This document shows positions 4,986 through 32,153 of a stretch of DNA of 64,000 nucleotides, piece by piece. This DNA is from Escherichia phage vB_EcoM-172859UKE1. The stretch lies in the sequence record MZ234025.1. One strand, written 5' to 3'. The notes under the pieces were generated by a model. The model did not search any database. It saw nothing but the letters and a program-made list of their open reading frames with translations, and was not told where the DNA came from. Each line of letters starts with the position of its first letter. Position 1 is the first letter of the stretch. The position numbers and the translations under genes were made by a program.

Positions 4986-4993
4986 AATACCTC

Positions 4994-7900
4994 TTATTCA
5001 ATCCACTCGAATTTAACAGATTTATTCACAGGGTCTGGAATAATGCGGACATTACCAATCCTTAAGAAATCCCTTATTGTCAAGTTTCCGATTGTTGCAT
5101 TATCAGAAGGTAAAGCACCAATATCAGAAGGTTGAGGAGGGTTTCCACCATCAAATACCTGAACAAAACTTGACCAAGAATTTTTGGTTTTCTGCCATGT
5201 ACGTGTCCAACGGGTTGTACGTGCTTCTGGAGTTGTTGGATAAGTAATCCAATCTTGGTAAAGTGAATCAAGTGTGTTACCAAACTGAGTCAGTGTACCA
5301 GGAGATTTAACTTCTTCGCCACGTTCTAAGTATGGAAGCCCAGTCACTTCATTAGTTTTTTCAACCATTTTAAAATAACCTGGGAACTGGTTATAAGTGG
5401 CTGAATCGTTAATATCAATTGACCAGAATCCTACATTATCAGATGTTGGCGCACGGGTATATAAATCGGATGTTTTAGTACCCTGAGAACGAATTCTCGA
5501 GTTAACAGTTAAACCGCCTGAATTTATAGTAGCACCTTTGGCAATGATTAAGCCTTCACCAATCGTTACTTGGCCAGATGCATTATTAATAGCCAAAGGA
5601 CGTAATCCATTAAATCCGCCAGTCTGATCACCCGATGCAGTGAGCATAAAATAGGTATTAGCAGCATCATTGCGAATAAAGAATCCGTAATCACCACTAA
5701 TTGCTCTGAAAGCATTTGCAGACTTGCTAATGAATTCACCATTGGCTGTAACTGAACGACCAAATGTTGCAACGCCATTCGCATTTAACGTGCCTGAAGC
5801 GTTAACATTTATTGGCATCACAGTACCGTTAATGCTAAACGTTATATTCCCAGCTTTATTACGTTGAGAATAAAAGTGATTAGATGTTTCATCACCAACT
5901 TCAAACACAGTCGAACGAGACGTATCACTTCCACCACCAAACTGATTTCCCCAAACTCTGATAGACATCGTCTGCGCTGGGTTAGTTCCAGTCTGAGGTC
6001 CTTTTTCAAAAATCAGACGAGTTGCCGTTCCGGTATTAGAAATAGTTAATGTACTATTTGCCGAAACTGAACCACCAAACGTAGCAGTACTAGATGATAC
6101 AAGAGGGGCACTCAGATTCGTTTGTTGAGTTAAGGTTAGTGAACCATTAACCGTCTGTGCAATGTCCCTACGAATGAACTGAGATGAATCTAGGCCATCT
6201 AATAAATTTGCGTCAGCAGCTTTTGCTTTTAATGGCAAATAGTTAGCAAGTACACGGTTTAATTCATATGGTGATACCGCATAACTATTTTTCTCATATG
6301 ATTCTAAAGGTTGTGTTGAACCAACTGTATCATTACCAACAAATGTAATAGAACCGGATGAAGTTTTAACGAATCCACGAATCGCCGTAGTAGCAGCCCA
6401 TGTCGGTTCAGACTGGACAATCCATTTTAAATTCTTAGGAGATACAGCAGTATTAGCAGAAGTTCCTGTTACAGTTTCAGCCTGAGTAGCAACCTTAATT
6501 ACGCCTTCAGACGTTTCAGTGGACTTAGTCCCTAAAAGCTTTTTAGGAGTAATAAGAACATCATCTAAAGTTCCTGCATTAGATTCTGCCTGGGTCGCTA
6601 CGCGAAGTGTACCACGTTGTGTTTCATTTGCTTTAGAAATATCAAGAGTATAATGGTTCCACAAGGTTCCTTCTTCAATAAGTCCGGAATCAGAATTAAC
6701 ACTGGTACGGTCAGAAGAATCAAAATGAGTTTTAATTTTCAGTGGAGTTGAGATACGAGTATCATCAGTTCCAGTATCAAATTCAACTTGCGTAGCAATT
6801 TCGGCTATGCCGGATAATCCTTCCGTAGCTTTCCTATCATTTAACGTCTTAGGCGTTACTGCACGTGTATAATCAGTCCCAGCATTAGTTTCTGTTTGCG
6901 TAGCAATTTCAATTAAACCAATACGTCCATCAGTAGATGTTTTCTTATGTAGTGTTTCAGGAGTTACTACAGCGTGAGAATAACCTGCTTGAGATTGTCC
7001 AGCAATTACTTCACTATCAACAGCTAAAATTACTGCACCTTGTTGAGCATAAGTTGCTTTATATTGGTCAAGGGCTTTAGGAGAAATAGTTAAATTATTT
7101 ACGGTTTTATTATAAACGTTAGTGCCTGCGGCCCCACGAGTTTCAGCAGGAGTAGCAGAAGTAGTTGATACATATTTAACTATACCAGATAGTGTTTCAG
7201 AACCCTGACGTGCCTGCAATTTCTTAGGTGTAATAATCGTTGTGTCATCAAGACCAGCATCGGTTTCAGTCTGAGTAGCAATTTCAGCAAGTCCGCGACG
7301 AGTTTCAGTTGCTGTACGCTCATTTAGTTTTTTAGGCGTAACAATAGTATCGTCAACAAATGTTGCTGTGGAATTCTGGTTAACTTGTGCTGTTGTAGCA
7401 ATTTTAGCGATACCACGTCGAGCTTCAGTTGCTGTACGATTTGCCAACGTTTCAGGAGTAATAGCCACTTCTTTAGCTGGAGTATTCTCTAAATCAACAT
7501 TTGCTTGCGCTTGAGTAGCAAGAGCAATAACACCTAAACGAGCTCGTGTAGCATCAGTTCCAGCATCAACACGTTCTACCGTAGGGACATTCTGTTGCAC
7601 AACCCAATAATGGGTGTCAGAATCGGTATCTTCAATATATGCTAATTCTAATACAGGAACATATGAATTAGTACCATTGAATTCCAATTCAGTAACAGAA
7701 ACCCATTGAGCATCAGGTGGATATTCAGAACGTTTAGGGAACTGAAGCAATGCAACAGAAGAAGCAATTGTATCACCTTCGGCAGCTTTAATTTTTACTG
7801 TTTGGCCTTTACGCATGTAGTTCATTGAAATTTTAACAGTGTCACCACTCAAAATTCCGCTAGGCAGCGTAAGAGTAATAGTTCCGGTTGTAGCGTTATT

Positions 7901-12973: not shown

Positions 12974-14660
<1,687 letters not shown>

Positions 14661-15002: not shown

Positions 15003-17258
15003 ATGCAAGTAACTAAGAGCAGTGGTGTATCCCAAAATTTTGATGCACAGAAAATTATTCAAGTCTTAACTTGGCAATGTGAAGGAACACAAATTGACCC
15101 ATATGAATTGTACGAAGAAATTAAGACCCATCTTGTCGATGGGATGAGCACCAAAGATATTCAGAAGATTTGTATTAAAGTTGCAGCTAACTCGATTTCT
15201 GTCGAAGAACCTGATTATCAGTATGTCGCCGCCAAAGGGCTAATGTTTGCACTTCGTAAAGATGTATATGGGCAGTTTGAACCGCCTGCTTTTATCGACC
15301 ATATTTCTTATTGTGTTAATGAAGGCAAATATGACCCTGAGCTGTTGTCTCAATATTCAGCAGAAGAAATCATTTATCTCGATTCACAGATTAAACATGA
15401 ACGAGACTTTGACCTGACTTATGCTGGTGCTATGCAGCTTAAAGAAAAATATCTAGTTAAAGATAAAACAACTGGGAAGATTTATGAAACTCCACAGTTT
15501 GCTATCATGGCTATTGGCATGGCCTTACACCAAGACGAAACTCATGACCGTTTGAAACATATTATTCGTTTTTATGATGCCGTTTCTACTCATCAAGTTT
15601 CATTGCCAACCCCAATTATGGCAGGTGCTCGTACTCCAACTCGCCAGTTCTCTAGTTGTGTAGTTATTGAAGCCGGTGATTCGTTAAAATCTATTAACAA
15701 AACTTCAGCATCAATTATTGAATATATTTCTAAACGAGCTGGTATTGGTATCAACGTTGGTATGCTTCGTGCAGAAGGTTCTAAGATCGGTATGGGTGAA
15801 GTTCGACATACGGGTGTTATTCCATTCTGGAAACATTTCCAAACTGCAGTAAAATCTTGTTCTCAAGGTGGTATTCGTGGTGGTGCTGCTACAGCGTATT
15901 ATCCGATGTGGCACTTAGAAGTAGAGAACCTATTAGTTCTGAAAAATAACAAAGGCGTGGATGAAAACCGTATTCGACATATGGACTACGGAATTCAGAT
16001 TAATGACCTCATGATGGAACGCCTTGGTAAAAATGATTATATTACTTTATTTAGCCCTCACGAAATGTCAGGCGAACTATACTACTCGTTCTTTGAAGAT
16101 CAAGATAAATTCCGTGAGCTTTATGAGAAAGCTGAAAAAGACCCAACAATCAGAAAGAAAAGAATCAAAGCACTAGAACTCTTTGAATTGTTCATGACTG
16201 AACGTTCTGGTACTGCTCGAATTTATCCACAGTTTGTTGATAACACGAATAACTACACTCCATTTATTCGTGAAAAAGCTCCAATTCGTCAGAGTAACTT
16301 ATGTTGTGAAATCGCTATTCCAACTAATGATGTGAATGGTCCTGATGCTGAAATTGGTTTATGCACATTATCTGCTTTTGTATTGGATAAATTTGATTGG
16401 CAAGACCAAGATAAAATTAATGAACTTGCTGAAGTACAAGTACGTGCACTTGATAACCTGTTAGACTATCAAGATTATCCGGTTCCAGAAGCTTTAAAAG
16501 CTAAAAAGCGTCGTAATCTTGGTGTTGGTGTTACGAACTATGCTGCATGGTTAGCTTCTAACTTTGCTTCATATGAAGACGCTAACGATTTGACTCATGA
16601 ATTGTTTGAGAGATTGCAATATGGCCTTATCAAAGCTTCAATCAAACTCGCCAAAGAAAAAGGATGTTGCGAGTATTATTCAGACACTAAATGGTCTAGA
16701 GGCGAATTACCTATCGACTGGTACAATAAAAAGATTGACCAAATCGCAGCCCCGAACTACGTCTGTGACTGGGAAGAACTTCGAGCTGAACTCAAAGAAC
16801 ATGGAATTCGTAACTCAACGTTGTCTGCACTCATGCCTTGTGAGTCAAGCAGTCAAGTATCAAACTCTACAAACGGGATTGAGCCCCCACGTGGTCCAGT
16901 AAGTATTAAAGAATCTAAAGAAGGCAACTTCCGTCAGGTTGTTCCTAATATAGAACATAACACGAGTCTTTACGACTACGCGTGGAAACTTGCTAAGAAA
17001 GGTAATAAACCTTATTTAACCCAAGTTGCTATCATGTTGAAATGGGTGTGCCAATCTGCTTCTGCTAATACTTACTACGACCCTGCAGTATTTGAGAAAG
17101 GTAAAGTGCCAATGTCAGTAATGCTTGACGATCTGCTTTACTTCTGGTACTTTGGCGGAAAAAACCTCTACTATCATAACACTCGTGATGGGTCAGGTAC
17201 AGATGACTACGAATTAGAAACACCTAAAGCTGAAGATTGTTCTGCTTGTAAGCTTTAA
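15003..17258 (+). CDS. nrdA: aerobic ribonucleotide reductase large subunit
   Basis: 751-aa ORF with class I RNR alpha features; size of T4 NrdA (~754). Confidence 0.96.
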   Translation: MQVTKSSGVSQNFDAQKIIQVLTWQCEGTQIDPYELYEEIKTHLVDGMSTKDIQKICIKVAANSISVEEPDYQYVAAKGLMFALRKDVYGQFEPPAFIDHISYCVNEGKYDPELLSQYSAEEIIYLDSQIKHERDFDLTYAGAMQLKEKYLVKDKTTGKIYETPQFAIMAIGMALHQDETHDRLKHIIRFYDAVSTHQVSLPTPIMAGARTPTRQFSSCVVIEAGDSLKSINKTSASIIEYISKRAGIGINVGMLRAEGSKIGMGEVRHTGVIPFWKHFQTAVKSCSQGGIRGGAATAYYPMWHLEVENLLVLKNNKGVDENRIRHMDYGIQINDLMMERLGKNDYITLFSPHEMSGELYYSFFEDQDKFRELYEKAEKDPTIRKKRIKALELFELFMTERSGTARIYPQFVDNTNNYTPFIREKAPIRQSNLCCEIAIPTNDVNGPDAEIGLCTLSAFVLDKFDWQDQDKINELAEVQVRALDNLLDYQDYPVPEALKAKKRRNLGVGVTNYAAWLASNFASYEDANDLTHELFERLQYGLIKASIKLAKEKGCCEYYSDTKWSRGELPIDWYNKKIDQIAAPNYVCDWEELRAELKEHGIRNSTLSALMPCESSSQVSNSTNGIEPPRGPVSIKESKEGNFRQVVPNIEHNTSLYDYAWKLAKKGNKPYLTQVAIMLKWVCQSASANTYYDPAVFEKGKVPMSVMLDDLLYFWYFGGKNLYYHNTRDGSGTDDYELETPKAEDCSACKL

Positions 17259-18971: not shown

Positions 18972-20105
<1,134 letters not shown>

Positions 20106-20107
20106 TG

Positions 20108-20137
20108 GTTTACAAACACCAAGGATGGTGTTACTAT
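20108..20137 (+). promoter_or_regulatory. T4-type early promoter (alc-like gene)
   Basis: GTTTAC, 18-nt spacer, TACTAT; overlaps rnlA stop. Confidence 0.65.
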
Positions 20138-20167
20138 GGCTTTTATCAACAACACGAGGAGAAAATT

Positions 20168-20668
20168 ATGAATATGCAATTGATTACTAACGATATGGTC
20201 GTAACCGCTTTTGGAGACACAACTGACGGAATCCGGGTCTTTAAGAAAGGACGTCCAGTTGGTTATCTTACTGACCTACGTGTTACACTGGCCAAAAATC
20301 TTAAAAAGAAAGTAAAACAAAAAGAGTATTCCACCCGATACGCTGAAGAGAAACGCGAAGCGATGCCGGAAGCAGTTAATGCCATGGTAGAATTTCTTCA
20401 AAACAATTTGACTAAATATGACGCTAATGTGTTCATTAATATTAGTCAACCAAACGTACATATCGCAGGTATAAAATTCTACATTATTTGCGACCCTCTT
20501 ACCGACAAATTCAACCGCCTCGGAATTTCAAGTCCGTATCATACAGCAGAAGAGTTGTGTGTATTGTTTGAATCGTACAAAATCCAGTGTGATGGTTTGA
20601 AAACCGTTCTTATCAATGGATTATCCCGAGATGAAATCATTGAGATTATTAAAACATGCTTAAAGTAA
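20168..20668 (+). CDS. alc: Alc-like host transcription inhibitor (assigned by position and size)
   Basis: 166 aa from ATG 20168 (GAGGAG SD); track start 20105 lies inside an early promoter; position rnlA-alc-pseT as in T4. Confidence 0.5.
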   Translation: MNMQLITNDMVVTAFGDTTDGIRVFKKGRPVGYLTDLRVTLAKNLKKKVKQKEYSTRYAEEKREAMPEAVNAMVEFLQNNLTKYDANVFINISQPNVHIAGIKFYIICDPLTDKFNRLGISSPYHTAEELCVLFESYKIQCDGLKTVLINGLSRDEIIEIIKTCLK

Positions 20669-21012
20669 ATCCTATTTACGCTATAGTAGCAGCTTTTGCT
20701 CTAGTTTCTACGGTAACAATAGTTGTCTTAAACAACAAAGTTGATTCGTTGAATACTGAATTAGCTTCTGTCAAAGAGACCGCTAAAAACAATGCTAAAG
20801 TATTAGACGACTTCAAGGTTCAATATCAGTCAATCGAAGAAATGACTTATAAGAACCGTGTTTTAGTTGACCAACTTAAGGCCGAAAATGAAAAGCTCCG
20901 TAAGGATTCGAAGAAGAAGAACGTGGTGGCAAGTAAACCAGGATTGGTCGAAAAACAAATCAACAAGTCCTTCGATTCCTTTGCAGAAGACCTCAGGAAG
21001 CTCTCAGAATGA
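20656..21012 (+). CDS. inner-membrane spanin (Rz-like; T4 pseT.3 position)
   Basis: N-terminal TM helix IYAIVAAFALVSTVTIVVL then charged coiled-coil; overlaps next gene. Confidence 0.65.
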   Translation: MLKVNPIYAIVAAFALVSTVTIVVLNNKVDSLNTELASVKETAKNNAKVLDDFKVQYQSIEEMTYKNRVLVDQLKAENEKLRKDSKKKNVVASKPGLVEKQINKSFDSFAEDLRKLSE

Positions 21013-21299
21013 TTAAATTAATCGCAGTTGTATTATCTATTGGCATTTTGGCTGGATGTGCCCAGGATGTGCCCTTAAGCCCTAAAGAAACTTTACATCC
21101 GCCATGGCCTGAATCTATTGTTGAATATAACCAGAAATGGCAAGTAAAGGTTATTGATGGTAATCCATGGGTTGGAATGCCATTTGAAGACTCTCAAGAA
21201 TTTCGTATCTGGTTAAACGACGTAAAAAGATATGTACATGACCAGAAGACTATGTTATGTTATTATCGTAGTGGTTTAAAAGAGGAAAAATGCCAATGA
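21009..21299 (+). CDS. outer-membrane lipoprotein spanin (Rz1-like; T4 pseT.2 position)
   Basis: signal peptide with lipobox LAGC (MIKLIAVVLSIGILAGCAQ); paired with upstream coiled-coil membrane protein. Confidence 0.65.
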   Translation: MIKLIAVVLSIGILAGCAQDVPLSPKETLHPPWPESIVEYNQKWQVKVIDGNPWVGMPFEDSQEFRIWLNDVKRYVHDQKTMLCYYRSGLKEEKCQ

Positions 21300-21514
21300 C
21301 TAAAGAACAGCATGAATACATTAAAGGGCTTATCTATGAATCTGAAATGGCGGCTATGATTTATGGGCGCCAGATTCAACGATTAGAATCTTTGCCTCCG
21401 ACTAATGACCGCTTGTTAGTTCAGTCTCGTGCTAATCTGAAAAATGAATATCAGAATAAGTGGGCAGTAGCGACTAAAGCTCTTCATGAGTATATTGAAT
21501 CTTTAGTAAAATAG
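21290..21514 (+). CDS. hypothetical protein
   Basis: 74-aa ORF, ATG overlapping previous stop. Confidence 0.45.
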   Translation: MPMTKEQHEYIKGLIYESEMAAMIYGRQIQRLESLPPTNDRLLVQSRANLKNEYQNKWAVATKALHEYIESLVK

Positions 21515-21543
21515 TTTACAAACTCTCGGGAGCAGAGTATAAT
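21514..21543 (+). promoter_or_regulatory. T4-type early promoter
   Basis: GTTTAC, 18-nt spacer, TATAAT. Confidence 0.7.
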
Positions 21544-21571
21544 GCTCCTATGGATAATTGAGGAAATCTAA

Positions 21572-21870
21572 ATGAAAACATTACTAGAGAATTACATCAA
21601 ACGGTCTGATGAGTATATTGATATCTGCCGTGGAATGTCACTTGTCAATTATGACAAAGATGCAGCAAAGGCACTAGATGAAGCAGGTAAAGCTCTTCGT
21701 AAAGCTGCTAAAGAAAAAGGGTTGGATTTGCAACAACTCAAAAGTCATATGATTAAATTTATTTCTTCAAACGTTAGAAGTACGTCAATTAATAAAAACG
21801 TCGCTGAAATTAATAAAGACCGGCGAGAGCATAACATTCGTATTCTTGAAACTTTCTTAGGAATAAAATA

Positions 21871-21871
<1 letters not shown>
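21572..21871 (+). CDS. hypothetical protein
   Basis: 99-aa ORF behind early promoter and GAGGAAAT SD. Confidence 0.5.
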
Positions 21872-22957
<1,086 letters not shown>

Positions 22958-22958
<1 letters not shown>

Positions 22959-23149
22959 TGAAACGATTATATGAAGTGATTGAGGCCATCGAACGGCATA
23001 AAGAATATTTGTTTGTAGCCTGGCCTTTAGTAAATGGACAGTTCGGTATTGATGTGCTGGACTATGAGCATGAAGAACGTTTGGACGGTGGTATATTTGA
23101 TAACGTCGACCAGGCAATTGAATGGTTAAATGAAAACTATGTACGATAA
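22958..23149 (+). CDS. hypothetical protein
   Basis: 63-aa acidic ORF, TAATG coupling to pseT. Confidence 0.4.
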
Positions 23150-23354
23150 ACATCATGAAATCGAAGATGAAGCATACAAAATGCTTCGTAAACTAGTGGG
23201 ACTTAATATGAGTCCTACATTAATCAACAAACTCGCAGGAATTCGTAATGATCTGAATACTCGTTACAAAGGCGAATATCATGTAGAGTTTGTTCCTGTA
23301 GGTGAACCGACCGAGCGATTTGTTGTTCGAGTTAAAGTAAATACTGTACACTGA
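23130..23354 (+). CDS. hypothetical protein
   Basis: 74-aa ORF. Confidence 0.4.
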   Translation: MKTMYDKHHEIEDEAYKMLRKLVGLNMSPTLINKLAGIRNDLNTRYKGEYHVEFVPVGEPTERFVVRVKVNTVH

Positions 23355-23361
23355 GGTAATT

Positions 23362-23637
23362 ATGTTCCCAACTTATTCTGAAATTGTAAAGGTAGTCTTC
23401 AGTCAGATTATTGCTAATAATATGTTTGAAGTGCTTGATAATGCAGCCGAACTCAGAGTTCATGCTCAACTAACTCATGTACTCAATGCTTTGCTCCCAG
23501 ACCAAGTAGATTCTATTGCTATTACTCTTCTCCCTGGGTCTGCACACGTCATAGTGGTATTTGATCTTGACGGTGATTTAGTTATCCAATGTGATATCAA
23601 TTTCGGTACACAAAAAATTGAATGCAAAGCAATTTAA
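23362..23637 (+). CDS. hypothetical protein
   Basis: 91-aa ORF with GAGG SD. Confidence 0.45.
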   Translation: MFPTYSEIVKVVFSQIIANNMFEVLDNAAELRVHAQLTHVLNALLPDQVDSIAITLLPGSAHVIVVFDLDGDLVIQCDINFGTQKIECKAI

Positions 23638-23639
23638 TG

Positions 23640-23669
23640 GTTTACAACATGGTGGAGTTGTGATACTAT
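23640..23669 (+). promoter_or_regulatory. T4-type early promoter
   Basis: GTTTAC, 18-nt spacer, TACTAT. Confidence 0.65.
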
Positions 23670-23697
23670 AACTCTACCAACAAATGAGGAAATAGAA

Positions 23698-23934
23698 ATG
23701 CTAAGTGAAAACCCAATTACAGTACACGAATTTCAGATTAAAGTAAAAGAATTTGCTCAAGCACTCATCAATAAAGTGTCTGAACGTTTCCAAGATGCAA
23801 CATTACGAGTTATTCAAGAATCTCCACGTTCTTTTCTCATAATCGTTAATCCTAAAGATGGTGACCAAATTACTAATCTTAAATTAGGCAGTGATGGTCT
23901 TGTTGAAGCAACTCGAGTATATGGAACACTATAA
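23698..23934 (+). CDS. hypothetical protein
   Basis: 78-aa ORF behind early promoter 23640-23669. Confidence 0.45.
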   Translation: MLSENPITVHEFQIKVKEFAQALINKVSERFQDATLRVIQESPRSFLIIVNPKDGDQITNLKLGSDGLVEATRVYGTL

Positions 23935-24054
23935 TGAGAGCTATCTCATTACTATCGAGAATGGTCATAAATCTGAGCACTACCAACTTAGCCTGTCTAA
24001 TCCGGTTAAAGGTATTGTTGAATCAGAATCTGTTTATATCTCCTAAGGATTGTT

Positions 24055-25047
24055 ATGTTACCTGTCGTCGGAAAACTTATTTCTCCAAAAGAACTGGCTG
24101 AGATTATTCCTTTGTCGGAAGCTTACGCATCACAAGTGGCTTCTCATCGCGAACAAGTTAATTCGATTATGAACGGTGAAGACCCACGCAAACTTATTGT
24201 TGTAGGTCCTTGTTCAATTCATGACCCTATTGCTGCTGTTGAATACGGCAAACGTCTGGCTGAACTTCAAACTCGTCTTCCTAATGTTCTGTTAGTGATG
24301 CGCGTTTATTTTGAAAAGCCTCGAACTACCGTAGGTTGGAAAGGTCTTGTAAATGATCCATATCTTGACGGAAGTTTTGATATGAACCACGGTCTTATAG
24401 TTGCACGAACATTGTGTCGTAAACTTCTACGTATGGGACTTCCATTAGCAACTGAAGTATTAGACCCATTCACGATTAAGTATCTTTCTGGTATTTTCTC
24501 ATGGGTTGCTATTGGCGCCCGTACGACTGAAAGTCAGACACATCGTGAAATTGCTTCAGGTCTACCGATGTGCGTAGGCTTCAAGAACGCAACCAATGGT
24601 TCTATTAAAGTAGCTACAGACGCGATGTATAGTGCCGCCTGGCCTCATCGGTATATGGGTATGGACGTCGATGGTACTGTAGGCATTGTTGAAGCTGAAG
24701 GTAATCAGAATACGCATATCGTATTGCGTGGCGGGACCAACGGCCCGAACTATCATTCTTCTGATATTCAAGAAGCTTCTAACAAAGCAAGGGCAGTAGG
24801 TCTGAATCATTATGTAATGGTTGACTGTAGCCATGCAAACGCTGCTGGGCATTATAGCAATCAAATTGGTATTGGTAAAAATTTAGCAGCTAATGATTTG
24901 GTCAAAGGAATTATGATAGAATCATTCCTACATGAAGGAAATCAAAAAATTTCTGATAATATGTCCTATGGCGTTTCCGTTACCGATGCGTGCATCAGTT
25001 GGGAACAAACTAAAGAGCTGTTAACTTATATTAATAAGGTTCAATAA
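24055..25047 (+). CDS. 3-deoxy-D-arabino-heptulosonate-7-phosphate (DAHP) synthase, AroG/AroF-type
   Basis: 330 aa; KLIVVGPCSIHDP, RVYFEKPRTTVGWKG, GARTTESQTHRE, GFKN, VDCSHAN, IESFLHEGNQ, SVTDAC motifs co-linear with E. coli AroG active site; AAGGA SD. Confidence 0.88.
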   Translation: MLPVVGKLISPKELAEIIPLSEAYASQVASHREQVNSIMNGEDPRKLIVVGPCSIHDPIAAVEYGKRLAELQTRLPNVLLVMRVYFEKPRTTVGWKGLVNDPYLDGSFDMNHGLIVARTLCRKLLRMGLPLATEVLDPFTIKYLSGIFSWVAIGARTTESQTHREIASGLPMCVGFKNATNGSIKVATDAMYSAAWPHRYMGMDVDGTVGIVEAEGNQNTHIVLRGGTNGPNYHSSDIQEASNKARAVGLNHYVMVDCSHANAAGHYSNQIGIGKNLAANDLVKGIMIESFLHEGNQKISDNMSYGVSVTDACISWEQTKELLTYINKVQ

Positions 25048-25628
25048 TGAAAGCTAGCACATATCTTCAAATTGCTTATTTGATTTCTCAAGAATCAAAA
25101 TGTTGTTCATGGAAAGTTGGTGCCGTCATTGAAAAAGATGGACGCATTATTTCTACAGGTTATAATGGCTCTCCTTCAGGTGGTACAAACTGTTGCGAAC
25201 ATGCATCCGAAAACGGCTGGTTGAAGAATAAACCAAGCCCGGCTATTTCTGATGGGCAGAAAGAAGGCACTACAGCATTTGGACGGGCAGATAATTTTGT
25301 TTTGGCTAAAGAACATCGGGCTGCTCATAGTGCATGGTCTGCTAATAACGAAATCCATGCAGAATTGAATGCAATTTTGTTTGCAGCTCGTAAAGGTAAT
25401 TCTATTGAAGGTGCTACGTTATATACTACGCTTTCTCCGTGTCCTGATTGCACTAAAGCTATCACACAATCAGGCATTAAAAAGGTCGTATATGCAGAAT
25501 TATATGACCGGTCTCCTGAAAATTGGGCAGACATTCTTAAACAAGCTGGTATTGAAGTAATTCAGTACTCTCGTAATAATCTTCGTTCTCTGAATTGGGA
25601 ACAAATTCGAAACTTTTGTGGTGAATAA
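25047..25628 (+). CDS. cd: dCMP deaminase
   Basis: 193 aa; zinc motifs HAELNAI and SPCPDC; size of T4 Cd. Confidence 0.93.
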   Translation: MKASTYLQIAYLISQESKCCSWKVGAVIEKDGRIISTGYNGSPSGGTNCCEHASENGWLKNKPSPAISDGQKEGTTAFGRADNFVLAKEHRAAHSAWSANNEIHAELNAILFAARKGNSIEGATLYTTLSPCPDCTKAITQSGIKKVVYAELYDRSPENWADILKQAGIEVIQYSRNNLRSLNWEQIRNFCGE

Positions 25629-25629
25629 T

Positions 25630-25926
25630 ATGATTTTAACTGAACAAGAAACTATGGTTCTTCGTGAACGTATTAAAACTATTCTGTCTGTAGGTGTTCA
25701 TTGTGTTGTATTTGAAAAGGCTAATGGTGATGTTCGTACGATGTTTGCCTCCCGTGATGAACTTGAAGTCAAATATGAAAATAGAAATCCAGCAACAGAA
25801 GTTCGTTCTGAACCTCGTGAATCAGTTCGAGCATTCGATACCGAGTTAGGTCAGTGGCGTTCTTTCCGCCTTGATAAAGTAATTTCGGTTGATGGTACTC
25901 CGGTAGAACGTTTGCTTCTTATGTAA
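25630..25926 (+). CDS. hypothetical protein
   Basis: ATG 25630 right after cd stop; 98 aa. Confidence 0.45.
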   Translation: MILTEQETMVLRERIKTILSVGVHCVVFEKANGDVRTMFASRDELEVKYENRNPATEVRSEPRESVRAFDTELGQWRSFRLDKVISVDGTPVERLLLM

Positions 25927-25928
25927 TA

Positions 25929-25953
25929 TGCTTTACGAATAGTATGGTATTAT
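25929..25953 (+). promoter_or_regulatory. MotA-dependent middle promoter (gene 31)
   Basis: MotA box TGCTTTA 25929-25935, 12-nt spacer, TATTAT. Confidence 0.65.
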
Positions 25954-25983
25954 TAATCTATCGTCAAACAACAAGGAAATAAG

Positions 25984-26316
25984 ATGTCTGAAGTACAACT
26001 CCCAATTCGTGCTGTTGGTGAATATGTCATTCTGGTTTCTGAACCCGCTCAAGCAGGTGATGAAGAAGTTACCGAATCAGGACTTGTGATTGGTAAACGT
26101 GTTCAAGGTGAAGTTCCTGAACTATGTGTAGTTCATTCTGTAGGTCCTGATGTTCCTGAAGGTTTTGTTGAAGTCGGTGATTTGACTCCACTACCAGTTG
26201 GACAAATTCGAAATGTTCCGCATCCATTTGTGGCTTTGGGACTTAAACAACCTAAAGAAATTAAACAGAAATTCGTAACATGCCACTATAAAGCTATTCC
26301 GTGTCTTTATAAGTGA
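25984..26316 (+). CDS. 31: head assembly co-chaperonin (GroES-like)
   Basis: 110 aa, [29 protein letters not shown]... nearly identical to T4 gp31; MotA-type middle promoter upstream. Confidence 0.97.
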
Positions 26317-26324
26317 TATAAATA
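26317..26324 (+). promoter_or_regulatory. late promoter TATAAATA (rIII)
   Basis: exact match just after gene 31 stop. Confidence 0.55.
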
Positions 26325-26440
26325 ACTATATGAAGAGAACACTCTTCTAAGCGGTAGCCTACAACTGAGAGACTTGTCGAAAGAAGGTGAAATTCAGACG
26401 AACGTGGCTACTAAATATTATCTCGAATTGAGAATTTAAA

Positions 26441-26689
26441 ATGATTAAACAATTACAACACGCTCTTGAACTGCAACGAAACGCATGGAATAATGGTCAT
26501 GAAAACTACGGCGCATCTATTGATGTTGAAGCCGAAGCTCTTGAAATCCTTCGTTATTTCAAACATCTGAACCCGGTCCAGGCAGCTTTGGCTTCTGAAC
26601 TGGAAGCAAAAGATGAACTGAAATATGCTAAGCCTTTGGCTTCTGCAGCTCGTAAAGCAGTACGTCATTTTGTTATTACCCTGAAATAA
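26441..26689 (+). CDS. rIII: lysis inhibition accessory protein rIII
   Basis: 82 aa, matches T4 rIII length and sequence. Confidence 0.9.
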   Translation: MIKQLQHALELQRNAWNNGHENYGASIDVEAEALEILRYFKHLNPVQAALASELEAKDELKYAKPLASAARKAVRHFVITLK

Positions 26690-26883
26690 GTGTTAGGTGA
26701 GTCACTACCTTAGTGTGAAGTTAAAATCGAGGAGCCGTCGAACTATGTTTTACGGTGTACCTCTTGAATGTTGACGAGGTTTATGGTTATCCTGTCGTTA
26801 AATATCCAAAACCTATGTTCCCTTCGAGGGCTTGCGCAGGCAATGTCAATAAGTCCTGCATTTTCATTTAAAGAGAATTTATA

Positions 26884-27063
26884 ATGGCAAAACAAGCTAA
26901 AGCAAAGAAAGCAGTTGAAAAGAAAGTTGATGGTACCTCTAAACGCGCTGGATACAAGCGTGGGTCGAACTATCGTATTAATCAAACAGTTGAGAAGATC
27001 ATGCGCAGAGCACGTGCAGTTCTTCGAGATGATGCTTCTCGTTTTGGAAAGGTTATTGCATAA
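26884..27063 (+). CDS. small basic protein (59 aa), unknown function
   Basis: Not in ORF track (<60 aa): MAKQAKAKKAVEKKVDG...; followed by strong UUCG terminator 27069-27090. Confidence 0.45.
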   Translation: MAKQAKAKKAVEKKVDGTSKRAGYKRGSNYRINQTVEKIMRRARAVLRDDASRFGKVIA

Positions 27064-27068
27064 TTTTA

Positions 27069-27090
27069 GGGAGACTTCGGTCTCCCTTTT
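27069..27090 (+). terminator. rho-independent terminator after the 59-aa basic ORF
   Basis: GGGAGAC-TTCG-GTCTCCC then TTTTG. Confidence 0.8.
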
Positions 27091-27122
27091 GTGCGTTTAG
27101 GGCAGAAAAAGTTTAAAAAGAT

Positions 27123-27151
27123 GTTTACTCTCCTGTAGGATGTGTTACTAT
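27123..27151 (+). promoter_or_regulatory. T4-type early promoter
   Basis: GTTTAC, 17-nt spacer, TACTAT. Confidence 0.65.
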
Positions 27152-27193
27152 AGACTTGTACCACCTAATCGATAAAACAAACCGGAGAACAAA

Positions 27194-27562
27194 ATGAAAA
27201 TCAATCTGAACTCATACATCAAATGTAAAGACCACGACGGTTATAAAGCTATCGAAATTAAAGAATTCCAGTGGATGTTATACAAAGAGCAATTTGAGTT
27301 CGTAGGTTGTATGACCCCTGAAGGTCCTTCAGATGATTTCTCTTGGAAAATTGTGTTAGCAAACTTTTTCACAGGTGACACATACGAATTAAAAACTATT
27401 ATTACCGGTAAAATTCGTTCAGAAACATATGTTGACGAAGAAACCGGTTACTCTGAAGATGTTACATGGTATCAAAATGGACGCATTACAGCAGATAACC
27501 TGATCGAAAAAATGAAAGCCAAAGGTGTTTTAAATTTAGACAATTGGATTAAAGTTGCATAA
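27194..27562 (+). CDS. hypothetical protein
   Basis: 122 aa; early promoter and GGAGAA SD upstream. Confidence 0.5.
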   Translation: MKINLNSYIKCKDHDGYKAIEIKEFQWMLYKEQFEFVGCMTPEGPSDDFSWKIVLANFFTGDTYELKTIITGKIRSETYVDEETGYSEDVTWYQNGRITADNLIEKMKAKGVLNLDNWIKVA

Positions 27563-27566
27563 AACA

Positions 27567-27595
27567 GTTTACTTTGGTACAGGTTATGTTATTAT
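27567..27595 (+). promoter_or_regulatory. T4-type early promoter
   Basis: GTTTAC, 17-nt spacer, TATTAT. Confidence 0.65.
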
Positions 27596-27636
27596 AGACC
27601 TGTACCAACAAACAACTTAAACATCTGGAGAATAAA

Positions 27637-28002
27637 ATGAACTACATCAACTTCGAACGTAAATATGTTTCTAACGGTATCGCTGGTTCTTCTGAAGTTA
27701 TTTGCTTATGGAAATACGAAAACGGTACAGTTTGTGAAATCGAACAGTGCATGACTCCTAATTACGTTTATATGCGATTTGAAAATGGCATCACGGTTTC
27801 AATCACGATGGAAGGTTCCAACTTCAAAATTGCATTAGATGACGATTTCCGTCAGCGTGATTTAGGTACTCATCCTTGCTGGAATGGTGTTAATCGTAAA
27901 CTTCTGGTTAAAACTTGGATTCGTCATATCCTGAGTAACCGAGCTAAACCTGAACATCTCGAAGCAATCTTTGATGTAGTTCTTAACGAATTTGATATCT
28001 AA
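27637..28002 (+). CDS. hypothetical protein
   Basis: 121 aa; early promoter and GGAG SD upstream. Confidence 0.5.
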   Translation: MNYINFERKYVSNGIAGSSEVICLWKYENGTVCEIEQCMTPNYVYMRFENGITVSITMEGSNFKIALDDDFRQRDLGTHPCWNGVNRKLLVKTWIRHILSNRAKPEHLEAIFDVVLNEFDI

Positions 28003-28009
28003 ATTAATT

Positions 28010-28025
28010 GGGAGCTTCGGCTCCC
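28010..28025 (+). terminator. UUCG hairpin (weak terminator or RNA stability element)
   Basis: GGGAGC-TTCG-GCTCCC, no U-tract. Confidence 0.35.
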
Positions 28026-28037
28026 ACTGAGGAAATT

Positions 28038-28652
28038 ATGTTTAAAGTTAATACTTTTTATAAAATGAATTTTAAAAATGGGGATATTACTCCACGCCTT
28101 AAAAACATGTTCTCATATGACCTTATTGAGCCTTTTGAAGTTTTAGAAGTTACTGATGCCGGCTCAGTTTGTGAAATTAGAACTTCTGAAGGTAAAATTT
28201 ATCAGGCCGGTGTTGGTAAATTCAGTAATTGTTTTACTTTAATATTCTCGACCGATTTAGATGAGCATTTTATTGAATGTCCTAACCCTAAGGTCTATGA
28301 AGTTCCACATCAAGAAACTAAGAAAAATGGACCGCACGAATATACGAAGGTTGAAACTCCTCACGGCGTGATGTGGCGACATAACTCTCCTTTTGGAAGT
28401 AAAGGAACATTTGCTCAACTGGCTAAGCCCTACGACGATGAAAAATATGTAGTAGTCCTTTTATCTGAACAGGGTACTCAAGACCGTGGATGCCAGCGTT
28501 CCGGTTTATTGAGTGAACTCGAAGCTCATAACCTAGCACGTGAATTCGTTGAGAAAAATCCTGGTTCTGAAGCTCTAGTCATGAAAGCAATTACTCAATA
28601 TATCACTGCTCAACCTGTTGTTCATCCGGTAGAAATTAATTTCATTAAGTAG
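28038..28652 (+). CDS. hypothetical protein
   Basis: ATG 28038 with GAGGAA SD; track start 28008 is TTG inside a hairpin. Confidence 0.5.
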   Translation: MFKVNTFYKMNFKNGDITPRLKNMFSYDLIEPFEVLEVTDAGSVCEIRTSEGKIYQAGVGKFSNCFTLIFSTDLDEHFIECPNPKVYEVPHQETKKNGPHEYTKVETPHGVMWRHNSPFGSKGTFAQLAKPYDDEKYVVVLLSEQGTQDRGCQRSGLLSELEAHNLAREFVEKNPGSEALVMKAITQYITAQPVVHPVEINFIK

Positions 28653-28706
28653 TGTACATCCAAGGACGGATTAGAGTATAATGATTTCTTTAGTAAGTGG
28701 AAAAAT

Positions 28707-28904
28707 ATGAAATTTTTAATAGCACAAACAGTCCAATTAAAAGGTGTTGGAATCCCTGGGATGATTTTTAAAGTTCTCAACGAATTTAAAACTGCCGCTG
28801 GAATTATCAATGAAGCGTATGCTGTTCAATGGGTTGATGGGACTTCTGACATACGTATGGGTAAAGAGTTATCTCCTATTAAAGGGTTGAAACATGTTGA
28901 ATAA
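28707..28904 (+). CDS. hypothetical protein
   Basis: 65-aa ORF. Confidence 0.4.
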   Translation: MKFLIAQTVQLKGVGIPGMIFKVLNEFKTAAGIINEAYAVQWVDGTSDIRMGKELSPIKGLKHVE

Positions 28905-29112
28905 ATTAATCCAGAAATTGTTTGGTACGGAAATGATTGAAGTTACTTATCGTGTAACCGACGTTTTTCCATATTACGCGGAAAACCGTTTAGAACCATA
29001 CGTTACGTCAATTAAAATGCCTAAAAATGACAGAAATTTATCTATCGAAGACCGTATACCTGGATACGGACATTGGGCTGATGTTGAAATTATAAGTGTT
29101 AAAGATGTCTGA
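28894..29112 (+). CDS. hypothetical protein
   Basis: 72-aa ORF overlapping neighbours. Confidence 0.4.
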   Translation: MLNKLIQKLFGTEMIEVTYRVTDVFPYYAENRLEPYVTSIKMPKNDRNLSIEDRIPGYGHWADVEIISVKDV

Positions 29113-29563
29113 ATTAGAAATAAGAAGTAATTTCAAATGGCCGTCATGTGCATTAAGTAACTTTGCTCAATGGCCTTTTGTTATGGATGGTATTCAATTC
29201 GGAGGTCTTGAAGGATTTCTCCAAGGATGTAAGGTGAAAAATGTTGAACAACAAAGACGTATATTTGGGTTGTCTGGATTGGCTGCACAGCAAGCTGGAA
29301 GGTCTTACGCAAGAGCTCAGGACCGTGGGACTCTCTTCTGGTTAGGAGTTCCATTTTCAAGATACTCCGAAGCGTGGAAAGAATTATACACAAATGCATA
29401 TTTTGAAGCCGCGATCCAAAACAAGGGGTTTCGTGATGCCTTACAAGCCTCTAAAGGAAAAATTTTGAAGCACAGCATGGCCAGCCACCTAACAAAAGAT
29501 GATACAATACTAACTGAAGATGAATTTATTGACGTGTTAAACCTATTAAGAGACTCTTTATGA
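29105..29563 (+). CDS. NADAR (YbiA/DUF1768)-like domain protein
   Basis: SCALSNFAQWPFVMDGIQFGGLEGFLQG resembles the NADAR N-terminal signature; ATG 29105 overlapping upstream stop. Confidence 0.55.
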   Translation: MSELEIRSNFKWPSCALSNFAQWPFVMDGIQFGGLEGFLQGCKVKNVEQQRRIFGLSGLAAQQAGRSYARAQDRGTLFWLGVPFSRYSEAWKELYTNAYFEAAIQNKGFRDALQASKGKILKHSMASHLTKDDTILTEDEFIDVLNLLRDSL

Positions 29564-30384
29564 AGCCTACTATTTTGACTGATATTGATGGTGTATGTTT
29601 AAGCTGGCAATCTGGACTTCCTTATTTTGCCCAAAAATATAACCTTCCATTAGAACATATTTTAAAAATGATTCAGGACGAAAAATTTATTTCTCCTGGT
29701 AAACTGTTCAATACCGACGATAACCTTGGTAAACAATTAATAGAAAAATATAATAGCTCTGATTTTATTCGTTACTTAGCGCCTTATTCTGATGCTCTTC
29801 GAGTTATCAATAAACTAAAAGAAGACTATAATTTTGTAGCCGTGACGGCGCTAGGTGATTCAATTGATGCTCGATTGAATAGACAATTTAATTTGAATGC
29901 TTTGTTCCCAGGCGCTTTCTCTGAAGTAATGATGTGTGGACATGATTCTTCAAAGGAACAATTATTCGAACTAGCTAAAACAAAATATAACGTGATTTGT
30001 TACGTTGACGATTTAGCTCATCATTGTGACCATGCGGCAGAAATTCTTAATGTACCGATTTATTGGTTGGCTCGTGGTGAACGTGACGCCATTCCTCGTA
30101 CTGCACAACGTGTACACACGTGGGATGATATTGAATCTCGTTTGGTTCCACCCGAGCATAATTCAGATTCAGATCGTGAAGACCTTTTAAAACGATTGGC
30201 GGATTTGCTTAAAGAATCTGGTGCAACAAGTCCAGGTGCATGGCCTAATCAAATTGGTGGCCCCTCGACAACACGTACTCCATATACCTGGCGAACCCCA
30301 GGACCAACTGATATGCAGCCGTGGTGGACGATTCAAAACTTTCCTTTAGATTCGTCTAAATGGACTTGGTCTATAAATTGTTAA
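29560..30384 (+). CDS. HAD-superfamily hydrolase-like protein with Trp/Pro-rich C-terminal extension
   Basis: N-terminal ILTDIDGV (HAD motif I), later YVDD; C-terminal ~80 aa rich in W, P, T. Confidence 0.5.
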   Translation: MKPTILTDIDGVCLSWQSGLPYFAQKYNLPLEHILKMIQDEKFISPGKLFNTDDNLGKQLIEKYNSSDFIRYLAPYSDALRVINKLKEDYNFVAVTALGDSIDARLNRQFNLNALFPGAFSEVMMCGHDSSKEQLFELAKTKYNVICYVDDLAHHCDHAAEILNVPIYWLARGERDAIPRTAQRVHTWDDIESRLVPPEHNSDSDREDLLKRLADLLKESGATSPGAWPNQIGGPSTTRTPYTWRTPGPTDMQPWWTIQNFPLDSSKWTWSINC

Positions 30385-30393
30385 GGGTTAATT

Positions 30394-30663
30394 ATGTTTG
30401 TAGTTCATGATATTACAGATGGCAAAAATACCACACGTGACTACGGTCACGTTAACATGTTCTTTCGAGACTGGCCATTGTTTCGTTCAGTAAAAGACGC
30501 AGAAATATTTAAAGAGTGTGTTGAACAAGGGTTCATCTACATTTCAGAATACTATGTTGAAGGACTCGGTAAATGGATTACAACTTATCAGAAAACGCTG
30601 AAATCGCTTCTAGATGAAGTGGCTTATAATAGAACCGTAACCAAAATCGAGGACATCAAATGA
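30394..30663 (+). CDS. hypothetical protein
   Basis: 89-aa ORF, AAGGG SD. Confidence 0.45.
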   Translation: MFVVHDITDGKNTTRDYGHVNMFFRDWPLFRSVKDAEIFKECVEQGFIYISEYYVEGLGKWITTYQKTLKSLLDEVAYNRTVTKIEDIK

Positions 30664-32153
30664 TTTTAGATATTTTAAACCAAATAGCTGCGATCGGTTC
30701 TACTAAAACAAAACAGGAAATCCTTAAGAAAAATAAGGACAACAAATTACTTGAACGTGTGTATCGTTTAACATATGCACGTGGTATCCAGTATTATATT
30801 AAGAAATGGCCAGGACCAGGTGAAAGGTCTCAAGCGTATGGTCTTCTTGAATTAGATGACATGTTGGATTTTATTGAGTTCACATTAGCCACTCGTAAAC
30901 TCACTGGTAATGCTGCAATTAAAGAGCTCATGGGTTATATCGCTGATGGTAAACCTGATGATGTAGAAGTCCTTCGTCGTGTAATGATGCGCGACCTTGA
31001 AGTAGGTGCTTCAGTGTCTATCGCGAATAAGGTGTGGCCTGGACTTATTCAATTGCAACCACAGATGTTAGCATCTGCATATGACGAGAAATTGATTACT
31101 AAAAATATTAAATGGCCCGCATTTGCCCAATTAAAAGCAGATGGTGCTCGTTGTTTCGCTGAAGTTCGCGATGATGGTGTTCAATTCTTTTCTCGTGCCG
31201 GCAACGAATATCATGGTCTTACTCTATTAGCGGATGAACTAATGGAAATGACTAAAGAAGCTCGTGAAAGACACCCTAATGGGGTTTTAATCGACGGTGA
31301 ATTAGTTTATCATTCATTTGATATTAAAAAGGCTGTGAGCTCAGGAAATGACCTGTCGTTCTTATTTGGTGATAATGAAGAATCCGAAGAAGTACAGGTT
31401 GCAGACCGTAGCACTTCAAATGGTTTAGCAAATAAATCTCTTCAAGGGACTATTTCTCCTAAAGAAGCGGAAGGTATGGTTCTTCAAGCCTGGGACTACG
31501 TTCCTTTAGATGAAGTCTATTCTGATGGCAAAATTAAAGGTCAGAAATACGATGTTCGTTTTGCTGCTCTTGAAAATATGGCTGAAGGCTTTAAGCGAAT
31601 TGAGCCAATTGAAAATCAGTTAGTTCGTAATCTTGACGAAGCTAAAGTGGTTTATAAAAAATATGTTGACCAAGGTCTTGAAGGTATTATCCTTAAAAAC
31701 CGTGATTCATATTGGGAAAACAAACGCTCTAAGAATCTAATTAAATTTAAAGAAGTTATTGATATCGCTTTAGAAGTTGTAGGATACTATGAACACTCTA
31801 AAGACCCTAACAAATTAGGTGGTGTCGAACTCGTATCACGATGTCGTCGTATTACAACCGATTGCGGTTCAGGTTTTAAAGATACAACTCATAAAACAGT
31901 TGACGGTGTAAAGGTTCTTATTCCTTTAGACGAGCGTCATGATTTAGACCGTGAACGATTAATGACCGAAGCTCGTGAAGGTAAATTAATTGGACGTATC
32001 GCTGATTGTGAATGTAATGGTTGGGTTCATTCTAAAGGCCGTGAAGGTACTGTAGGTATTTTCCTTCCAATTATTAAAGGGTTCCGTTTTGATAAAACAG
32101 AAGCGGATTCGTTTGAAGACGTATTTGGACCGTGGTCCCAGACAGGTTTATAA
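30660..32153 (+). CDS. 30: ATP-dependent DNA ligase
   Basis: 497 aa; KADGAR adenylation motif, MILDILNQIAAIGSTK N-terminus, matches T4 gp30. Confidence 0.97.
   Translation: MILDILNQIAAIGSTKTKQEILKKNKDNKLLERVYRLTYARGIQYYIKKWPGPGERSQAYGLLELDDMLDFIEFTLATRKLTGNAAIKELMGYIADGKPDDVEVLRRVMMRDLEVGASVSIANKVWPGLIQLQPQMLASAYDEKLITKNIKWPAFAQLKADGARCFAEVRDDGVQFFSRAGNEYHGLTLLADELMEMTKEARERHPNGVLIDGELVYHSFDIKKAVSSGNDLSFLFGDNEESEEVQVADRSTSNGLANKSLQGTISPKEAEGMVLQAWDYVPLDEVYSDGKIKGQKYDVRFAALENMAEGFKRIEPIENQLVRNLDEAKVVYKKYVDQGLEGIILKNRDSYWENKRSKNLIKFKEVIDIALEVVGYYEHSKDPNKLGGVELVSRCRRITTDCGSGFKDTTHKTVDGVKVLIPLDERHDLDRERLMTEAREGKLIGRIADCECNGWVHSKGREGTVGIFLPIIKGFRFDKTEADSFEDVFGPWSQTGL

Follow-up and report, generated by a model that had tools for sequence, protein, structure and literature searches.

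A DAHP synthase between pseT and cd in RB69-like phages: a rebuilt inhibitor pocket and a predicted release from aromatic feedback

Why does a lytic T-even phage carry the enzyme that opens the shikimate pathway of its host, and does this enzyme obey the aromatic signals which restrain its cellular counterparts? The question is raised by a gene of Escherichia phage vB_EcoM-172859UKE1 (sequence record MZ234025.1), which belongs to Mosigvirus, the RB69-like T-even coliphages. In the 64,000-nucleotide stretch of this record analysed here (the window), positions 24055–25047 of the plus strand encode a type I-alpha 3-deoxy-7-phosphoheptulonate (DAHP) synthase, located between pseT and cd. Its catalytic site is that of the cellular enzymes. 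The site at which these enzymes bind their aromatic inhibitors is rebuilt throughout the phage clade, which points to an enzyme released from feedback inhibition.

The open reading frame (ORF) is uninterrupted and specifies 330 amino acids, the range including the stop codon. Its ATG at 24055 is the earliest start codon downstream of the preceding stop, so that an N-terminal extension is impossible, and the opposite strand carries stops throughout 24055–25047. The first-pass annotation, made from the letters alone, had recognised an AroF/AroG/AroH-type enzyme, and this identity is confirmed by the Pfam family DAHP_synth_1 (PF00793; E = 5.7e-75, 252.1 bits against a cut-off of 25.5), the NCBIfam equivalog model of aroFGH (TIGR00034; 427.5 bits against 173.2), the NCBIfam model NF009395 (455.2 bits against 343) and the PHROG profile phrog_5045 (E = 5.9e-182), as well as by the structures in PDB: E. 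coli AroF (6agm, E = 1.3e-104) is the top match in sequence, with structures from N. meningitidis and of E. coli AroG next in rank. The phrog_5045 match runs from end to end (residues 1–330 on profile positions 8–337 of 341) and stands in a true phage context, with pseT, cd, gene 31 and rIII as neighbours. Four NCBIfam families are matched at E ≤ 0.001, and each of them is a DAHP synthase model. The models of single isoenzymes are not reached: the AroG-specific NF006723 (364.1 bits) and the AroH-specific NF009396 (385.7 bits) stay under their cut-offs of 568 and 463, and no AroF-specific model is among the NCBIfam matches to the 330-residue protein. A KdsA-type (KDO8P synthase) assignment does not apply, the top NCBIfam and structure matches all being DAHP synthases. 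The seven motif blocks on which the early identification relied all occur in the translation and in the order given for them.

To follow the active site, the window protein was aligned with AroG, AroF and AroH of strain K-12 and with eight phage homologues, and the alignment was inspected residue by residue. The metal-binding tetrad C53, H260, E289 and D311 (C61, H268, E302 and D326 in AroG) is identical in every aligned sequence. The residues that bind phosphoenolpyruvate (PEP) and erythrose-4-phosphate (E4P), namely R83, K88, P89, R90, T91, G154, A155, R156, K177 and R225, are likewise kept in all of them; their AroG equivalents are R92, the K97-P98-R99-T100 loop, G163, A164, R165, K186 and R234. 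A substitution of a catalytic residue or of the KPRTT loop, looked for as grounds for rejecting the assignment, was found neither in the window protein nor in the eight phage homologues. The catalytic hexad is also near-universal in 111 diverse representatives of the family, which come from a 50%-identity library; this library returned no separate member of the phage clade and served as a diverse baseline. An AlphaFold monomer model built from a 56-sequence alignment (pLDDT 94.1, pTM 0.92, residues 1–10 in coil) was matched by Foldseek to the DAHP synthases 4hso, 8e0u and 1qr7 of N. meningitidis and E. coli with a TM-score of 0.96 and a root-mean-square deviation (rmsd) of 1.3–1.5 Å. The model also contains the beta-hairpin that decorates the type I-alpha barrel, as extra strands at residues 198–203, 209–214 and 220–224. 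The intact metal ligands and the intact set of tested PEP/E4P residues, taken with the modelled fold, indicate that the phage enzyme is probably catalytically competent, as was proposed at first.

The regulatory part of the protein is organised differently. A search covering 5.8 billion proteins gave matches in two groups, one composed of 25 phage proteins of 319–343 residues (55–99% identity) and the other of cellular enzymes of 341–388 residues from many phyla, with at most ~55% identity. Counted up to the column of AroG Leu17, the window protein has 8 leading residues against 16 in AroG, 17 in AroF and 15 in AroH, and all 25 phage proteins have 6–10, against 14–31 in the nearest cellular homologues listed. 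This bears out the remark of the first-pass annotation that the N-terminus is shorter than in AroG, and no upstream start codon is available to lengthen it. AroG positions 6–8, which form a D/N-N/D-L motif, are gaps in the phage proteins. In the cellular enzymes the inhibitor site of one subunit is completed by this N-terminal motif of its partner (PMC4735112); nothing on AroF N-terminal mutants is contained in PMC4174253.

The second part of the evidence comes from a scan for columns that are fixed in at least 92% of the 25-protein phage clade and fixed on another residue in at least 85% of the 98 nearest cellular homologues. Only seven of ~331 positions discriminate the clade in this way: AroG P150→I, Q151→K, D155→G, L156→I, S180→P, F209→Y and T223→A (in the window protein, I141, K142, G146, P171 and Y200 correspond to AroG 150, 151, 155, 180 and 209). 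The new residues are fixed in 23–25 of the 25 phage proteins, at an overall identity of only ~56%, and among the 98 cellular homologues P150 is kept in 92%, Q151 in 99%, D155 in 97%, S180 in 98% and F209 in 98%. Five of the seven positions belong to the 11 AroG positions listed as inhibitor contacts or feedback-resistance sites in PMC9529685 (hypergeometric p ~3e-7); the two others are close by, 156 being adjacent to D155 and 223 lying near V221, at a distance of two residues. The active site contains none of the seven. According to the same source, Q151/Q152 and S180/S181 hold the main chain of the inhibitor, D155 of AroG makes a stabilising salt bridge, and the AroG substitutions P150L, S180F and F209A/S give feedback resistance (PMC9529685). 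The conserved inhibitor contacts P150, Q151, S180 and F209, together with D155, are thus not found in the phage protein. The block of residues 129–180 is 77% invariant within the phage clade, against 34% for the protein overall. Since the N-terminal segment is missing and the inhibitor-contact residues are replaced, feedback insensitivity is predicted, and the phage enzyme is most likely unresponsive to inhibition by phenylalanine, tyrosine and tryptophan (Phe, Tyr, Trp). The reduced sensitivity suggested earlier from the N-terminus alone hence appears better founded than was noted, because P150, Q151, D155, S180 and F209 are replaced throughout the clade as well.

The comparison with the E. 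coli isoenzymes, based on the reference structures 6agm and 1qr7/1kfl/8e0u, illustrates both sides of this picture. The phage protein shares 51% identity with the Tyr-sensitive AroF, 47% with the Phe-sensitive AroG and 43% with the Trp-sensitive AroH, and it resembles them in fold (TM-score of 0.96 and rmsd of ~1.4 Å to AroG), in metal ligands, in PEP/E4P residues and in its match to the aroFGH equivalog model. It differs from them in being 18–26 residues shorter, in the lack of the first 7–9 N-terminal residues, including D6/D7 of AroG (N7/N8 of AroF), in internal deletions of 5 and 2–3 residues, in a short C-terminus and in the replacement of the inhibitor-site residues P150, Q151, D155, S180, F209 and T223. 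The engineered feedback-resistant (fbr) alleles aroG(fbr) and aroF(fbr), which carry changes such as P150L, S180F, D146N and F209A/S of AroG, provide a close parallel: the phage clade is naturally substituted at 150, 151, 180 and 209. Unlike these alleles, it uses I, K, P and Y instead of L, A, F and A/S, and it combines them with the N-terminal truncation.

The position of the gene suggests when the enzyme would be made. It lies in the pseT–cd slot, as the first-pass annotation had it. The “operon” with frd, td and nrdAB proposed there is right in that these genes are upstream on the same strand, but it is overstated, as they are 5.5–11 kb away. The TAATG overlap between the stop codon of the DAHP synthase gene and the start of cd suggests translational coupling of the two genes. 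The putative promoter at 23641–23669 aligns to the cd.3–cd.2 intergenic region of T4, for which the T4 record gives the early promoter Pe133295; given this homology, early co-expression of the DAHP synthase with cd is likely.

We suppose that the gene provides an active, early-made DAHP synthase which is deaf to host aromatic feedback and sustains the entry into the shikimate pathway during infection; judged from the sequence, this seems to us somewhat on the probable side. The metal-dependent enzyme would condense PEP with E4P, being transcribed early from the conserved cd.3–cd.2 promoter and translated together with dCMP deaminase. Its rebuilt pocket would prevent it from being switched off by Phe, Tyr and Trp, and its location in the phage genome would remove it from repression by TyrR and TrpR. 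As a result, carbon may keep entering the otherwise intact shikimate pathway of the infected host, and the chorismate-derived products may be sustained, i.e., the aromatic amino acids that late protein synthesis requires and, possibly, p-aminobenzoate/folate or quinones. Should Phe, Tyr and Trp indeed fail to inhibit the enzyme, a coliphage would here plainly override the principal point of control in one of its host's biosynthetic pathways, and metabolic engineers, who obtain feedback-resistant DAHP synthases by mutagenesis, would have one at hand that evolution has already tested. In T4-like cyanophages and in other phages, auxiliary metabolic genes are known to take over a rate-controlling step of the host. 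The present gene is similar to those of cyanophages in that a host-type pathway-entry enzyme is placed among the early genes of a lytic T4-like phage; it is different in that the pathway entered is the shikimate one and that the benefit is putative.

No other shikimate or folate-branch gene was found in the ~79 kb of annotation read of a ~169-kb relative. Several observations weigh against the proposal of an active enzyme free of feedback. RB69 and mar007P3 (a strain of vB_Eco_mar005P1) are viable without the gene, so that under some conditions, at least, a phage can do without it. The literature searched yielded no activity, expression or inhibition data for any member of the clade. Among the 111 diverse representatives of the family, Q151 together with S180 is kept by only 51, proline occurs at position 180 in 20, and 15 have an equally short N-terminus; since the pocket varies across the wider family, its remodelling is not specific to phages, and the regulatory effect is unreadable from sequence alone. 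AroH has glycine at position 150 and yet is Trp-sensitive. The invariant new pocket residues could fit a retuned or a structurally locked site equally as well as a dead one. With respect to expression, promoter-like sites are no commoner in the region than in shuffled sequence. Finally, the ratio of nonsynonymous to synonymous divergence (pN/pS) of the gene within Mosigvirus is ~0.1–0.9, calculated from 2–10 differences per pair, against 0.06–0.13 for cd.

The first-pass annotation knew of no such gene in T4 and was correct in this: the T4 slot holds cd.1, the DAHP synthase is absent, and Tequatrovirus genomes match the query solely within cd. The novelty that it implied did not stand, for phage-encoded DAHP synthases as such are already known. 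With megablast, 145 phage records were found to contain the gene, and in 135 of these its nucleotide identity is ≥99%; with tblastn, full-length intact homologues were detected in 212 phage records. In Mosigvirus, 139 of ~142 records have the same gene at 95–100% amino-acid identity. It is already annotated in many of these genomes, the existing names being aroF, AroG, phospho-2-dehydro-3-deoxyheptonate aldolase or DAHP synthase I alpha, and it has its own family, phrog_5045, filed under “moron, auxiliary metabolic gene and host takeover”. The window gene is the same gene in the same slot as those annotated in Mosigvirus, Kanagawavirus, Marfavirus, Winklervirus and Bragavirus; named members include gp195 of Shf125875, ORF64 of phiC120 and a gene of Klebsiella phage KLB31. 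A DAHP synthetase domain in ORF 64 was noted in the phiC120 genome paper (PMC8022965), and a 2025 study of Klebsiella phages considered the DAHP synthetase of a Kanagawavirus to be an auxiliary metabolic gene and proposed that it aids the supply of aromatic amino acids or derived metabolites (PMC11845039), in essence the purpose that the first-pass annotation had put forward. Only such passing mentions were found in the full-text literature searched, with no experimental or functional work on any phage DAHP synthase. As far as our searches show, the literature describes neither the remodelled pocket nor the history of the cassette outlined below.

Where did the phage enzyme come from? The 25 phage proteins form one clade (100/100 neighbour-joining bootstraps) with no obvious cellular sister. 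The pseT-to-cd slot is shared by every member whose context was examined, in Mosigvirus, Marfavirus, Winklervirus, Bragavirus, Kanagawavirus and two metagenomic T4-like contigs, and the closest DAHP synthases outside Mosigvirus are those of Kanagawavirus, with 77% identity. The composition of the gene is phage-like (GC content 41%, 0.30 at third codon positions), against 52–53% GC for aroF, aroG and aroH of E. coli. A recent capture from the host was rejected in view of this composition, of the identity of only 43–51% to AroF, AroG and AroH and of at most ~55% to any cellular donor, and of the monophyly of the clade. The gene thus represents an old phage lineage of the enzyme, confined to T4-like phages.

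Some DAHP synthases outside this clade deserve mention. The homologues listed under “Acinetobacter phage MD-2021a” were rejected as phage examples: CAKLQH020000056.1 carries aroF along with cobS, a histidine-phosphatase-family gene and an alpha-ribazole phosphatase gene, the pocket is the canonical P-Q-S one, and the record is probably bacterial DNA under a phage name. Aeromonas phage HJ05, which has a 79-kb genome and is not T4-like, encodes a 388-residue DAHP synthase annotated as hypothetical (3899–5062 of the HJ05 sequence compared). It has 38% identity to the window protein and another genomic context, and is unrelated to the phage clade; its catalytic residues are intact and its pocket has A at 150, H at 151, P at 155, P at 180 and V at 209, changes that may represent convergent deregulation. 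In the 50%-identity library, the top matches, with 799 and 730 residues, have roughly double the usual length, and both align in two stretches; they may represent DAHP synthases in tandem or fused form.

Within Mosigvirus, the gene has a more recent history, which is recorded in its borders. Direct reading of the window and RB69 sequences settled the junctions: two copies of a 13-bp repeat, agreeing at 12 of 13 bases, bracket a segment of 1,113 bp. Both copies are present at this distance in all six aro-positive Mosigvirus loci checked; at the cd.2/cd junction of RB69 and mar007P3 the repeat occurs once. In the window, the left copy and the gene are separated by 120 bp with a short leader ORF, which matches positions 44–76 of the 77-position cd.2 profile phrog_1504 (E = 1.8e-5). 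This ORF is closer to the C-terminal part of cd.2 in the Kanagawavirus and Marfavirus phages Entb_45, PEi26 and PWKp18 (50–55% identity, E from 3e-8 to 1e-6) than to the cd.2 of the window itself (30% identity, E = 0.02), and it marks the left border of the imported segment. The relic leader and the 13-bp repeats are specific to Mosigvirus. An origin of the leader from T4 cd.1 was also considered and discarded, as no similarity was found.

The cassette (23935–25047) is 99.0–99.8% identical among divergent Mosigvirus genomes, and in the same comparison the neighbouring genes of the flanks (18981–28002) are 92–95% (cd), 96–97% (pseT), 92–98% (rnlA) and 85–92% (rIII) identical. The synonymous divergence (pS) is 0.004–0.018 in aro against 0.14–0.29 in cd of the same genome pairs, i.e., about 20-fold lower, which suggests that one aro allele spread recently via recombination. 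RB69 lacks the gene although both its flanks match, and two records of vB_Eco_mar005P1, LR027383 (strain mar007P3) and LR027391, have the flanks without the gene. We initially read RB69 as a deletion between the 13-bp repeats, but the foreign cd.2 leader, the low synonymous diversity of the cassette and the flank variants common to the gene-lacking records make this less likely and favour an insertion. On the best reading of these sequences, the 3' half of a donor cd.2 together with aro, derived from a Kanagawavirus-like relative, entered an RB69-type empty site by recombination and subsequently spread within Mosigvirus. The record OZ035759 (“Mosigvirus mar005p1”) carries the full cassette, unlike the like-named LR027383; the flanks of the two are only ~97% identical, which indicates separate isolates rather than a laboratory deletion.

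Combining this history with the remodelled pocket, one can suggest that the gene swept through Mosigvirus on the imported cassette and that the clade is deregulated or retuned, so that the entry into the shikimate pathway is uncoupled from the aromatic status of the host. We advance this combination tentatively, as falling a little short of probable. If it is true, the sweep implies a considerable gain in fitness, e.g., in rich gut settings, with the host enzymes repressed and inhibited. The natural presence or absence of the gene (RB69 and mar007P3 against ~139 genomes) and the exactly known junctions allow an easy isogenic test of what a shikimate-entry gene is worth to a phage.

Other explanations of the same data assign the gene a different role or none. 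The catalytically active enzyme may have had its pocket retuned to another ligand, such as an aromatic acid, chorismate, prephenate or a phage-specific metabolite, which would amount to a phage-imposed control. The residues I, K, G, I, P, Y and A are fixed in nearly the whole clade and located in its most conserved block, where decay would have led to drift; the Gln→Lys change brings a positive charge to the place where the inhibitor main chain sat, and the beta-hairpin half of the allosteric machinery is kept in the model. However, a candidate ligand is lacking, the N-terminal lid contributed by the partner subunit is absent, the invariance may equally reflect packing at a tight-dimer interface, and the inter-subunit pocket is invisible in a monomer model, so we regard retuning as rather unlikely. 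It is improbable, too, that the benefit comes from consumption rather than from products, the drain of E4P and PEP pulling the non-oxidative pentose-phosphate reactions toward pentose phosphates for nucleotides. Auxiliary genes of cyanophages redirect pentose-phosphate flux in a general sense, the gene considered here is apparently coupled in translation to cd and runs in the same direction as frd, td, nrdA and nrdB, a deregulated enzyme would be an unregulated sink, and only the first step of the pathway is phage-encoded in the regions examined. Yet such a drain is purely conjectural, since sequence does not separate it from product supply, and T4-like early gene order is a weak guide to function, the corresponding T4 slot being occupied by unrelated small ORFs.

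The phages that lack the gene, its arrival on an imported cassette with junction scars and its relatively high pN/pS within the genus (though from few changes) would all suit a dispensable passenger, or “moron”, brought by recombination and spread by hitch-hiking with little effect on fitness. But the gene is full length and intact in every one of the 212 phage records that carry it, its catalytic residues are unchanged in eight divergent phage homologues down to 56% identity, and its synteny is kept in at least five genera, which argues for long-term purifying selection; moreover, the ~20-fold deficit of synonymous diversity relative to cd, together with the near-complete presence in Mosigvirus, resembles a sweep. 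We therefore give the passenger a low probability. Hardly any remains for a shifted substrate, e.g., the condensation of PEP with arabinose-5-phosphate or another sugar phosphate to feed a phage pathway of sugar or DNA modification. This idea draws on the fact that PF00793 also includes the KDO8P synthases and that Mosigvirus encodes an arabinose-5-phosphate isomerase and a phosphoheptose isomerase, but the KPRTT loop and every tested E4P/PEP contact are unchanged, NCBIfam matches only DAHP synthase models, and the clade-specific substitutions are outside the active site. RB69, furthermore, has homologues of both isomerases without the gene, and other genera carry the gene in the same slot. 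A functional link of the gene to the isomerase cluster and DNA sugar modification was rejected on the same ground, RB69 keeping the cluster.

In the sequence of Shf125875 compared (27840–30728), the phosphoheptose and arabinose-5-phosphate isomerase genes are placed beside the DNA polymerase gene, and both have RB69 homologues. This sugar-phosphate cluster of Mosigvirus has no connection with the DAHP synthase and adds a further set of auxiliary metabolic genes.

The gene order on the plus strand of the window is rnh, 59, 32, frd, td, nrdA, nrdB, denA, rnlA, alc, pseT.3–pseT.1, pseT, cd.4, cd.3, cd.2, DAHP synthase, cd, 31.1, 31 and rIII. The coordinates of the features discussed are collected in Table 1.

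Table 1. Position of the DAHP synthase gene, its cassette and neighbouring features in the window
Feature	Position	Strand	Remarks
DAHP synthase coding sequence (3-deoxy-7-phosphoheptulonate synthase, type I-alpha)	24055..25047	+	Based on ORF, family models, residues and fold
Left 13-bp direct repeat, ATAATGAGAGCTA	23931..23943	+	Resembles a duplicated cd start region
Right 13-bp direct repeat, ATAATGAAAGCTA	25044..25056	+	Spans the aro stop and cd start codons
41-codon leader ORF (phrog_15876; hypothetical in some records)	23921..24046	+	3'-half relic of a Kanagawavirus/Marfavirus-type cd.2
Shine-Dalgarno-like AAGGA	24045..24049	+	Putative; 5 bases before the ATG, read from the sequence
Putative early promoter, GTTTACA-17 nt-TG-TACTAT	23641..23669	+	cd.3–cd.2 gap, ~390 bp upstream of the gene
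cd.2 (78 amino acids, phrog_1504)	23698..23934	+	Resident gene directly upstream of the cassette
cd (dCMP deaminase, 193 amino acids)	25047..25628	+	ATG overlaps the DAHP synthase stop (TAATG)
pseT	22059–22958	+	
frd	13216–13803	+	
td	13800–14660	+	
nrdA	15003–17258	+	nrdB also upstream, same strand

An antisense sigma-70-like site is located inside the gene, at 24851–24879 of the minus strand (TTTACC, 17 nt, TG-TATAAT, 10 of 12 positions matching). It is probably a chance match, as the region holds just as many such sites as are expected from shuffled sequence.

The small early genes around the locus vary among Mosigvirus genomes. For cd.3 (23362–23637) there are two alleles, one with 99.6–100% identity to the window (Shf125875, HX01, RB69) and the other with 71–73% (AV113, LF82-3, PTK), and gene 30.8 (27194–27562) is replaced in AV113, where the identity is 68% over part of the length; this variation is a mosaic allele exchange among small early genes. 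The cd gene of RB69 is annotated with 169 residues (2075–2584 of the RB69 sequence compared) against 193 in the window. Its 3' end shows 1-nt and 2-nt indels in the alignment (around columns 1951 and 1983), which represent either a genuine frameshift or a mistake in the old reference.

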